DNA of 11,494 nucleotides from a virus. Its lineage: Duplodnaviria; Heunggongvirae; Uroviricota; Caudoviricetes. The stretch lies in IMG/VR virus record IMGVR_UViG_3300018488_000078, one strand, 5' to 3'. Positions 9,875-10,254 of this stretch are shown one piece after another (position 1 is the stretch's first letter; every line of letters starts with the position of its first letter). Made by a program: the position numbers and the translations under genes. Below the pieces are notes generated by a model, which saw only the letters and a list, made by a program, of their open reading frames with translations, was not told the origin of the DNA and did no database searches.

Positions 9875-10254
9875 GACTCACTCCCTGGCGGATTTTTGCA
9901 GCGAATACAGCAACACAACCGGACGGGCAACGGCTACGCGCTTCGCGTTCCGTCCAGGCGGTTACGTGGATGATTTGAGATTCTCCGGCACTCAGTGCCA
10001 GAAAACGCCACACAAAGGCCGTTTGTGTGTGTACAAGGTGTGGTATATGATTTACAGCAACCATAACGGCTCCTAGTTTACGTTGTTGGTTAGACGCCCC
10101 GTATGTGTTCCCAGCACTGCGGGGCGTTGCTCTTTGTATTTCAACAATCCTTTCGGTGTGTTTCATGTTATGAGCGCATGAAACACACGTCAAGGCTTTT
10201 TGTATTTCTTTTTTTGTGTATACTGAAACACACCGATGATTAGGAGTTTCAGAA
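9875..10254. promoter_or_regulatory. Divergent regulatory intergenic region with palindromes and a terminator-like hairpin
   Basis: 12-bp perfect inverted repeat GTGTGTTTCATG / CATGAAACACAC (10156-10167 and 10177-10188) 67 bp upstream of the RHH gene, with the half-site GAAACACAC repeated at 10225-10233. Palindrome GGCACTCAGTGCC at 9987-9999. G/C stem ACGCCCCG / CGGGGCGT (10094-10101 and 10120-10127) followed by a T-rich tail. Candidate -10 TATACT at 10219-10224. Confidence 0.5.

Follow-up and report, generated by a model that had tools for sequence, protein, structure and literature searches.

FinP, an antisense RNA of ~79 nt built from two stem-loops and a short tail, is complementary to the 5' UTR, ribosome site and first codons of traJ, the leading regulatory gene in the operon of a mobile element, and needs FinO. 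The sar RNA of phage P22, ~70 nt in length, is a cis-antisense RNA that pairs with the ribosome-binding region of the gene it controls, and the CI RNA of P4 shares its operon's strand and works by terminating transcription prematurely. In P22, the immI region combines the small antisense sar RNA with two ribbon-helix-helix (RHH) repressors, Mnt and Arc (PMC2629481), and in P1 an RNA acts at the translation start of icd, which opens the immI operon, and in this way governs the whole operon (PMC8198154). In Gram-positive PICIs, the gene of the Stl/Rpr master repressor and the excision/replication operon are transcribed in opposite directions from an intergenic region that contains the operators; the paper defining Gram-negative PICIs names an activator only, AlpA, and AlpA-dependent activation is the sole control demonstrated there (PMC6092414). 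The cf-PICI paper mentions neither a repressor nor an antisense RNA, and searches of the satellite literature (Icd-like/YlcI, PICI plus small RNA, the EcCIMP1 paper) turned up neither the RNA nor the YlcI-type repressor described below. Literature searches on the conserved sequence retrieved unrelated primers only, and an E. coli survey of orphan-terminator antisense RNAs lists other antisense RNAs, not the island RNA (PMC3326304).

The DNA analyzed here—11,494 nucleotides from the IMG/VR record IMGVR_UViG_3300018488_000078, referred to as the window—shares 98% identity across 11.35 kb with segments of E. coli chromosomes carrying a small phage-satellite island, and the region around 9875–10254 is the regulatory hub of this PICI-type island. 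This region very probably encodes, judging from the comparisons below, an antisense RNA of ~80 bases, which would cover the beginning of the gene that leads the replication operon. The island genes run in the order integrase, HTH regulator, BRO-N, YlcI/YnfO, Icd-like, several small ORFs, DUF4222, D5-type primase, SSB, capsid, decoration protein and small terminase, all on the minus strand with YlcI/YnfO as the sole plus-strand exception. The 65-aa Icd-like protein found a single locus when searched against genome contigs; in the phage collection, it gave one protein match (tblastn), an induced satellite of the same architecture, and no DNA match to the region was found in that collection. We also observed that the portal gene of a lambdoid prophage is apparently interrupted by the integrated island (window 1–3150, portal fragment 1561–2334). 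In locus L001, portal fragments lie on either side of the island (2059–2832 and 13678–14559), and the flanking prophage genes encode an S49 peptidase and capsid on one side and head-tail joining and large terminase functions on the other. The features of the coding part of the hub are as follows.

10255–10560, plus strand: YlcI/YnfO-family gene (101 aa) with a Shine-Dalgarno sequence, AGGAG, at 10242–10246; putative repressor
9867–10064, minus strand: Icd-like coding sequence (65 aa), recognized by the NF033153 profile and annotated in homologous records
9987–9999, no strand: palindrome GGCACT-C-AGTGCC, within the Icd-like coding sequence
10009–10029, minus (sense) strand: terminator-like hairpin CACACAAA-CGGCC-UUUGUGUG, followed by GCGUUUUCUGG
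8961–7207, minus strand: D5-type primase, in the operon begun by the Icd-like gene and reached via the small ORFs and DUF4222

The initial annotation had treated 9875–10254 as a 380-bp divergent, non-coding region, a description that fits only its right half: the stretch 9867–10064 is a minus-strand coding sequence whose product scores 63.7 bits against NF033153 (cut-off 25) and so belongs to the Icd-like family, leaving 10065–10254 as the actual intergenic part. The gene has a Shine-Dalgarno sequence, AGGAG, at 10074–10070 and an ATG at 10064–10062 on the minus strand, and it is annotated as Icd-like in E. coli records of 95.8% identity. Since its stop codon overlaps the ATG (9874) of the next ORF, and the ORFs are tightly packed up to the primase, the Icd-like gene is taken as the first cistron of the leftward operon. 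With half of the supposedly intergenic region occupied by this gene, the predicted plus-strand RNA is therefore cis-antisense to the Icd-like ribosome-binding site.

Two further elements lie within the coding sequence. The palindrome at 9987–9999, which had been read as operator-like, is present, but it falls in the codons for ALSA, is broken by a synonymous change in close relatives with the same peptide and is missing from other Icd-like groups; by rough estimate, about one 6+6 repeat of this kind is expected by chance per 380 bp, and we judged it incidental. The hairpin at 10029–10009, located 35–55 nt from the start of the Icd-like ORF, shares positions with the −35 of the antisense promoter. 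It is restricted to the HTQTAFVW peptide variant, and may therefore be a by-product of coding; as an intragenic terminator it was rejected on this ground.

Several alternative ORFs were discarded as well, namely a plus-strand ORF of 46 aa (10103–10243), whose start lies inside a hairpin of variable length and sequence between loci, a 67-aa ORF (9873–10076) and a minus-strand ORF of 356 aa (9867–10937) that runs antisense through the RHH gene. Long ORFs in the Icd-like frame that cover the RHH gene in antisense, together with the RNA gene and the operators, recur elsewhere (L012 1551–2294, L134 2200–3174 and L009 1274–1645, besides the one in the window), and public records label them as 'hypothetical' or as long 'Icd-like' proteins. 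These long ORFs are probably spurious and hide regulatory elements; public annotation routinely buries the RNA gene and the operators under such calls.

The intergenic part and the adjoining Icd-like codons hold the elements of the predicted RNA.

10023–10028 and 10046–10051, plus strand: antisense-RNA promoter, −35 TTGTGT and −10 TATGAT, with a 17-bp spacer
~10059–10141, plus strand: predicted cis-antisense sRNA of ~80 nt, from covariation, folding and a covariance model
10059–10091, plus strand: stem-loop 1, outer helix AACCA/UGGUU, extending into UAACG/CGUUG
10093–10128, plus strand: stem-loop 2, a G+C-rich hairpin of the intrinsic-terminator type, followed by the tail UGCUCUUUGUAUUU (10128–10141)

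We place the 5' end of the RNA at the invariant A10059, 7 nt past the −10, and its 3' end within the U-rich tail at 10137–10141. Between these ends its complementarity to the 5' leader of the leftward operon is perfect, and the RNA overlaps the Icd-like Shine-Dalgarno sequence (10070–10074) and AUG (10062–10064) on the opposite strand. The 5' arm of stem-loop 1 covers the Icd-like start codon (10062–10064), and its 12-nt loop, GCUCCUAGUUUA, bears the anti-Shine-Dalgarno sequence CUCCU (10070–10074). With its own promoter and terminator opposite a gene and its overlap with the translation start of that gene, the element has the predicted layout of a cis-encoded antisense sRNA. In the window, the RNA (10059–10141) folds with a minimum free energy of −33.5 kcal/mol (z −4.77, against −0.76 for the sense leader), and the hairpin region is more stable on the plus strand (−38.5 kcal/mol, z −4.0) than on the minus strand (−29.3 kcal/mol, z −1.6). 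The G/C stem with a U-rich tail noted in the initial annotation corresponds to stem-loop 2. Its stem is strong (−23.5 kcal/mol), and the tail, with 4–9 T in 10 nt, is interrupted (UGCUCUUUGUAUUU in the window, CGUCGUUUC in some relatives), so that termination may be partial; a consensus terminator scan called only the sub-hairpin at 10121–10133, not the main hairpin.

The promoter is embedded in Icd-like codons 5–14. A weak promoter-like pair had been proposed here, of which the −35 (TTGTGT, 10023–10028) holds; the better −10 is TATGAT at 10046–10051, displaced 2 nt to the right of the TATATG first named. Read as TAnnnT, this −10 keeps its T, A and T in 95, 94 and 95 of the 99 distinct aligned sequences that make up our first alignment (A1), and in all 56 sequences of a protein-anchored set, at a fixed distance of 7 nt from the invariant A that opens stem-loop 1. 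The variants include TATGAT, TATGCT, TAGACT, TATAAT and TACACT, and the element is kept although the overlapping codons encode different peptides (MVAVNHI, MRNHTT, MAGTQHT, MACTKST). An extended −10 TG is present in ~40% of the sequences; the −35 is weak, variable and not conserved.

Comparison across islands supports the RNA as a structured unit. In BLAST searches of complete E. coli genomes, positions 10040–10137 were found to be conserved as a block in many islands that have unrelated sequences past the hairpin, and further copies were retrieved from IMG/VR with a degenerate pattern. On A1, RNAalifold returned the two stem-loops. The outer helix of stem-loop 1 pairs AGCCA at the start codon with UGGUU, and the inner helix varies as CGAUA/UAUCG, CGUUA/UAACG, UGUUA/UAACA, GACU/AGUC and others, with changes on both sides at 4 of 4 pairs in A1 and 3 of 4 in a further alignment (A5), while the loop retains the anti-Shine-Dalgarno CUCC/CCUC in A1. 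In this alignment, whose retrieval pattern constrains TGGTTAGA and a portion of the stem, the plus strand has 97.0% of 2071 cells paired, as opposed to 37–48% for slid partners, and the covariation score is 0.316 (slid controls, ≤0.141).

The distribution of wobble pairs settles the strand of the predicted RNA as plus. A1 contains 338 G·U cells against 6 A·C cells (279 against 6 when the two pattern-constrained stem columns are left out), and the hairpin is the more stable on the plus strand in 103 of 108 sequences, with means of −21.4 and −16.4 kcal/mol. These data bear directly on an alternative reading, in which the hairpin would be an element of the sense (minus-strand) leader—either a processed RNA of the P1 C4 or P4 CI type, or a cis-acting control of the ribosome site. 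Such a reading draws on the position of the element in the 5' leader of an icd-like gene, on the C4 RNA of P1 being located directly upstream of icd on the same strand (PMC8198154), and on the fact that any hairpin also folds on the other strand. However, the 338 wobble cells turn into A·C on the minus strand, where pairing drops to 81%, which speaks against the same-strand arrangement of C4- and CI-type RNAs; moreover, the sense leader folds no better than its shuffles, and the hairpin contains no sequence complementary to the ribosome site on its own strand. Searches of Rfam 15 (the window at E≤1, 9850–10270 at E≤10) yielded nothing beyond chance eukaryotic matches that scored well under the gathering threshold, with no match to the C4 family or to any other, and RefSeq E. 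coli records carry no ncRNA feature under the RNA match. Together with the covariance scores given next, this makes a sense-leader element extremely unlikely.

As A1 had been fished with a pattern comprising TGGTTAGA and part of the stem, a covariance model (R1) was run on loci anchored by the Icd-like protein instead, found via a four-member Icd-like alignment and via one Klebsiella protein. R1 detected the RNA in 79 of 80 loci of close relatives of the window's Icd-like protein (63–96 bits) and in 79 of 80 loci of a diverse set seeded from a Klebsiella-derived satellite (43–103 bits); one of the two misses, in the close-relative set, is a locus without upstream DNA. The matches were always antisense and abutted the start codon, whereas the sense strand gave 14–16 bits. 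The window itself scores 85.8 bits, EcCICFT073 90.3 bits and the Klebsiella-derived induced satellite 66.7 bits. Across the 99 pattern-retrieved and 158 of 159 protein-anchored loci, EcCICFT073 included, the two-hairpin plus-strand RNA is conserved. A second alignment of 56 distinct sequences, which was fitted to the R1 model and leans towards its structure, has 98.1% of cells paired and 13 of 21 pairs changed on both sides, with 217 G·U against 7 A·C cells; over both alignments, 97–98% of cells are paired, as compared with 33–51% in slid controls. None of 500 shuffles reached the observed covariation score in A1, and all five structure measures of the second set likewise stood at 0 of 500, counts that overstate independence because many of the sequences are close relatives. 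The second set also varies outside the retrieval pattern, both in the stem (GCCCGG/CCGGGC, GCCCAG/CUGGGC) and in the linker (TGGTCAGA, TGGTAAGA, TGGTGAGA).

We are therefore confident, on the strength of these alignments, that the short plus-strand RNA suspected from the 10023/10046 promoter to the hairpin is a real and selected one; covariation, strand-specific wobble pairs and promoter conservation all bear the suspicion out. Sequence comparison supports its structure, strand and promoter as well as its position relative to the Icd-like ribosome site.

To the right of the RNA lie the elements that would govern transcription in both directions.

10156–10167 and 10177–10188: operator-type perfect 12-bp inverted repeat, GTGTGTTTCATG and CATGAAACACAC, arms 9 nt apart
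10193–10188 and 10170–10165, minus strand: leftward sigma-70 promoter from a promoter scan, −35 TTGACG and −10 TAACAT, with a 17-bp spacer
10219–10224, plus strand: −10 (TATACT) of the rightward promoter in front of YlcI/YnfO, abutting a half-site TGAAACACAC
10224–10233, extending to 10236: third half-site, TGAAACACAC

The perfect repeat with its repeated half-site, as described in the initial annotation, was confirmed, and so was its plausibility as an RHH operator. The motif TGAAACACAC has three matches in the 11.5-kb window, all in the control region (0.75 expected; 3 reached in 5 of 200 shuffles). The leftward promoter, which would serve the Icd-like/primase operon from a start site at ~10158, has the layout TTGA[CA]N, a 17–18 bp spacer and TAnnnT; this arrangement is found in 81 of the 99 related regions and in 14 of 630 shuffles. 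The left arm of the repeat spans its −10 to ~+1, and the right arm fills the spacer beside the −35. On the other side, TGTATACTG with the half-site recurs in front of the repressor gene in the loci that we call class A. The positions of the repeats are kept between loci, and their sequence is replaced wholesale: sites 2 and 3 agree at 7.9 of 9 positions within a locus, and comparison across loci gives 5.5 of 9. YlcI/YnfO-type proteins that have the same residues ahead of the R-[VIF]-P motif come with the same repeats, N-terminal strand and repeat being paired as QLTTVRVP with GAAACACAC, QALKARVP with GTGGCCCAC and S[LV]TARI[PA] with GTCTTACAC; TGAAACACAC and GAATCGCAC represent two operator specificity types. 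In its structural model, YlcI/YnfO has an N-terminal domain followed by a long C-terminal helix, and the predicted strand-helix-helix of the N-terminus corresponds to the RHH (Arc/MetJ/CopG) fold. Position over a conserved promoter, co-variation of repeat and protein, and an RHH-like model thus support the inverted repeat as the putative operator of the neighboring RHH protein.

Three copies of a 10-mer could also act at the level of DNA, for instance as a replication origin, iterons or a packaging site, given that PICI origins consist of short repeats near replication genes (PMC6092414). Here, however, the repeats bracket a conserved −35/−10 pair at fixed register, co-vary with the recognition strand of the adjacent RHH protein and are found upstream rather than downstream of the primase gene; additionally, the G·T asymmetry of the hairpin would be meaningless in duplex DNA. 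We regard this explanation as very unlikely. Both the conserved leftward promoter and the co-variation of operator and protein are seen in the sequence comparison.

The leftward promoter and the antisense promoter converge at a distance of ~100 bp, and the terminator of the RNA ends 15–30 nt before the predicted start of the convergent promoter. This geometry raises the possibility that the plus-strand RNA is real and serves mainly as a terminator or insulator, stopping antisense transcription before the operators and repressor gene, or acts through transcriptional interference, colliding with the leftward promoter. The freely varying apical part of stem-loop 2, as for a purely structural hairpin, is in keeping with that role. 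An insulator would require neither its own conserved promoter nor stem-loop 1, yet the inner helix of the latter covaries and its loop keeps the anti-Shine-Dalgarno sequence opposite the ribosome site, and the predicted 5' end of the RNA falls right at the start codon in every group; we consider such a role unlikely.

A comparable, low probability attaches to the reading of the plus-strand transcript as the 5' leader of the repressor mRNA, with the hairpin as a leaky attenuator and the short RNA as a by-product. The RHH gene is located downstream on the same strand in every locus, the U-tail is imperfect, and in what we term class B loci the RHH start lies ~75 nt past the hairpin without an obvious Shine-Dalgarno sequence or strong promoter of its own. 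Against this, class A loci, the window among them, have the strongly conserved TATACT −10 and half-site before the RHH gene, a transcript reading through would need to pass the convergent promoter and operators occupied by the repressor, and the module also occurs without a closely following RHH gene (L005 2501). In class B, YlcI is replaced by another small RHH-like ORF (e.g., ...FQIRITPELRQQL...), whose start codon, in the context RTG-TCA-AC, overlaps the −35 GTTGAC of the leftward promoter. These ORFs (MST..., e.g., ...YQMRLPEEF...) begin with ATG, GTG or TTG followed by TCA-AC, have no obvious Shine-Dalgarno sequence and are often unannotated; examples are found at L004 ~2600–2800, L005 2609–2782, L011 2404–2583, L003 2638–2817 and L012 ~1660.

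The reading that we prefer is a two-layer off-switch of the replication operon, formed by the RHH repressor and the cis-antisense RNA, and we hold it to be likely. In the first layer, the YlcI/YnfO RHH protein would bind the three copies of TGAAACACAC; the two inverted copies bracket the leftward promoter core (10193–10165), and their occupation would repress the operon from Icd-like to primase, whereas the third copy, abutting the −10 of the repressor's own promoter, would allow autoregulation. In the second layer, a constitutive promoter (TTGTGT-17-TATGAT) within the first Icd-like codons would make the ~80-nt plus-strand RNA, which could pair with the leader of escaping transcripts or of read-through from upstream alpA-side genes. 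Pairing would mask the Shine-Dalgarno sequence and the AUG and block translation of the first cistron, and the downstream replication genes would be silenced via duplex cleavage, lost translational coupling or Rho polarity. Silence against leaky or read-through transcription would last until, upon induction, the mRNA outnumbers the antisense RNA. From sequence we infer that this RNA is produced and repressive, that the repeats are bound by the RHH protein and that all steps beyond the pairing of RNA and leader proceed as outlined, these steps being modeled on established antisense systems. Translational repression of the first cistron would be the main action of the RNA, a view we favor by a modest degree; Icd itself may not be the control point, since the module precedes non-Icd first genes in distant loci. 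A broader role may be entertained only tentatively, with doubt outweighing support: repressor, operators and RNA could together constitute the system of master repression, or immunity, in Gram-negative PICIs and satellites related to them, acting upstream of or parallel to AlpA. Its exchangeable cassettes, one made up of repressor and operators and the other of RNA and leader, would then set immunity or incompatibility groups among satellites residing in one host, and helper phages would induce the islands by defeating the switch. Should the RNA and the RHH protein act as their anatomy suggests, they would explain how these islands stay silent, and could be their missing "off switch".

The components are widespread. 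Of 5426 complete E. coli genomes, 1178 contain BLAST-detectable relatives of the RNA region, a single genome holding as many as five copies, and the repressor has relatives in Klebsiella, Salmonella, Yersinia, Enterobacter, Serratia, Photorhabdus and Xenorhabdus. The full module—YlcI gene, RNA and Icd-like gene—is present in EcCICFT073, the model island of the paper defining Gram-negative PICIs, with three GTGGGCCACAC-type sites around a TTGACG-17-TATAGT promoter. Homology between islands breaks directly after the terminator (window ~10137; E. coli hits H36–H60), from which we conclude that the cassette of RNA plus icd and that of repressor plus operator reassort independently.

Beyond these islands, we observed the RNA module, complete with start codon, Shine-Dalgarno sequence, linker and hairpin, in distant viral contigs in front of first genes that are not Icd-like (L041, L052, L103, L102, L068, L118, L072 and L047/L055/L098), some of which resemble GIY-YIG nucleases; the module looks like a 5' control cassette that is portable. 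A dedicated type I toxin-antitoxin pair was considered and argued against, the same RNA module preceding unrelated first genes in distant loci. In the 60-kb plasmid pEC291_3 (NZ_AP027442.1), the RNA/leader module (L003 2483–2585) stands before a hypothetical gene, after which come genes for WYL-domain, DUF1819 and DUF1788 proteins, i.e., in a BREX-type defence neighborhood. Furthermore, some islands hold two copies of the module ~0.8 kb apart (L005, 1584–1683 and 2454–2553; L011, 1500–1601 and 2248–2348), the second adjoining a degraded icd-like remnant and an RHH gene of its own, which suggests tandem or recombined regulatory cassettes.

A cis-antisense RNA joined to an RHH operator switch is no new principle, and the island locus shares traits with each of the systems introduced at the outset. 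The analogy with P4-type elements, drawn in the initial annotation, applies at the level of function, as both are satellite elements in which a small RNA silences a primase operon (in the island, by prediction). It does not extend to sequence or model, the P4 CI RNA being a same-strand RNA: P4 lacks the TGGTTAGA motif in the compared region, has no DNA similarity to the window and gives a non-significant R1 score of 12.6 bits (E 0.36). With P1/P7 immI (C4, icd, ant), the island shares an icd-type first cistron as the RNA-controlled gene, but C4 is processed from the operon transcript itself and relies on short loops of complementarity, whereas the island RNA lies on the opposite strand and is fully complementary. 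As no Rfam match was obtained, the RNA falls outside sar, C4, FinP and other described families. Its anatomy is nonetheless nearly identical to that of FinP/traJ of F-like plasmids, from which it differs in the lack of a family match and in context, that of FinP being conjugation. The Stl/Rpr system of Gram-positive PICIs also has a divergent repressor gene with operators in the intergenic region, although the island repressor differs in fold and size (RHH, ~60–100 aa) and an antisense RNA layer is added. The closest in logic is P22 immI (mnt, arc, sar, ant), where RHH repressors at close, oppositely oriented promoters are likewise combined with an antisense RNA of the same size class; apart from the missing Rfam match, the island differs in that the target would be the first cistron of a satellite replication operon rather than an antirepressor, and that the promoter of the RNA lies inside the first codons of its target.
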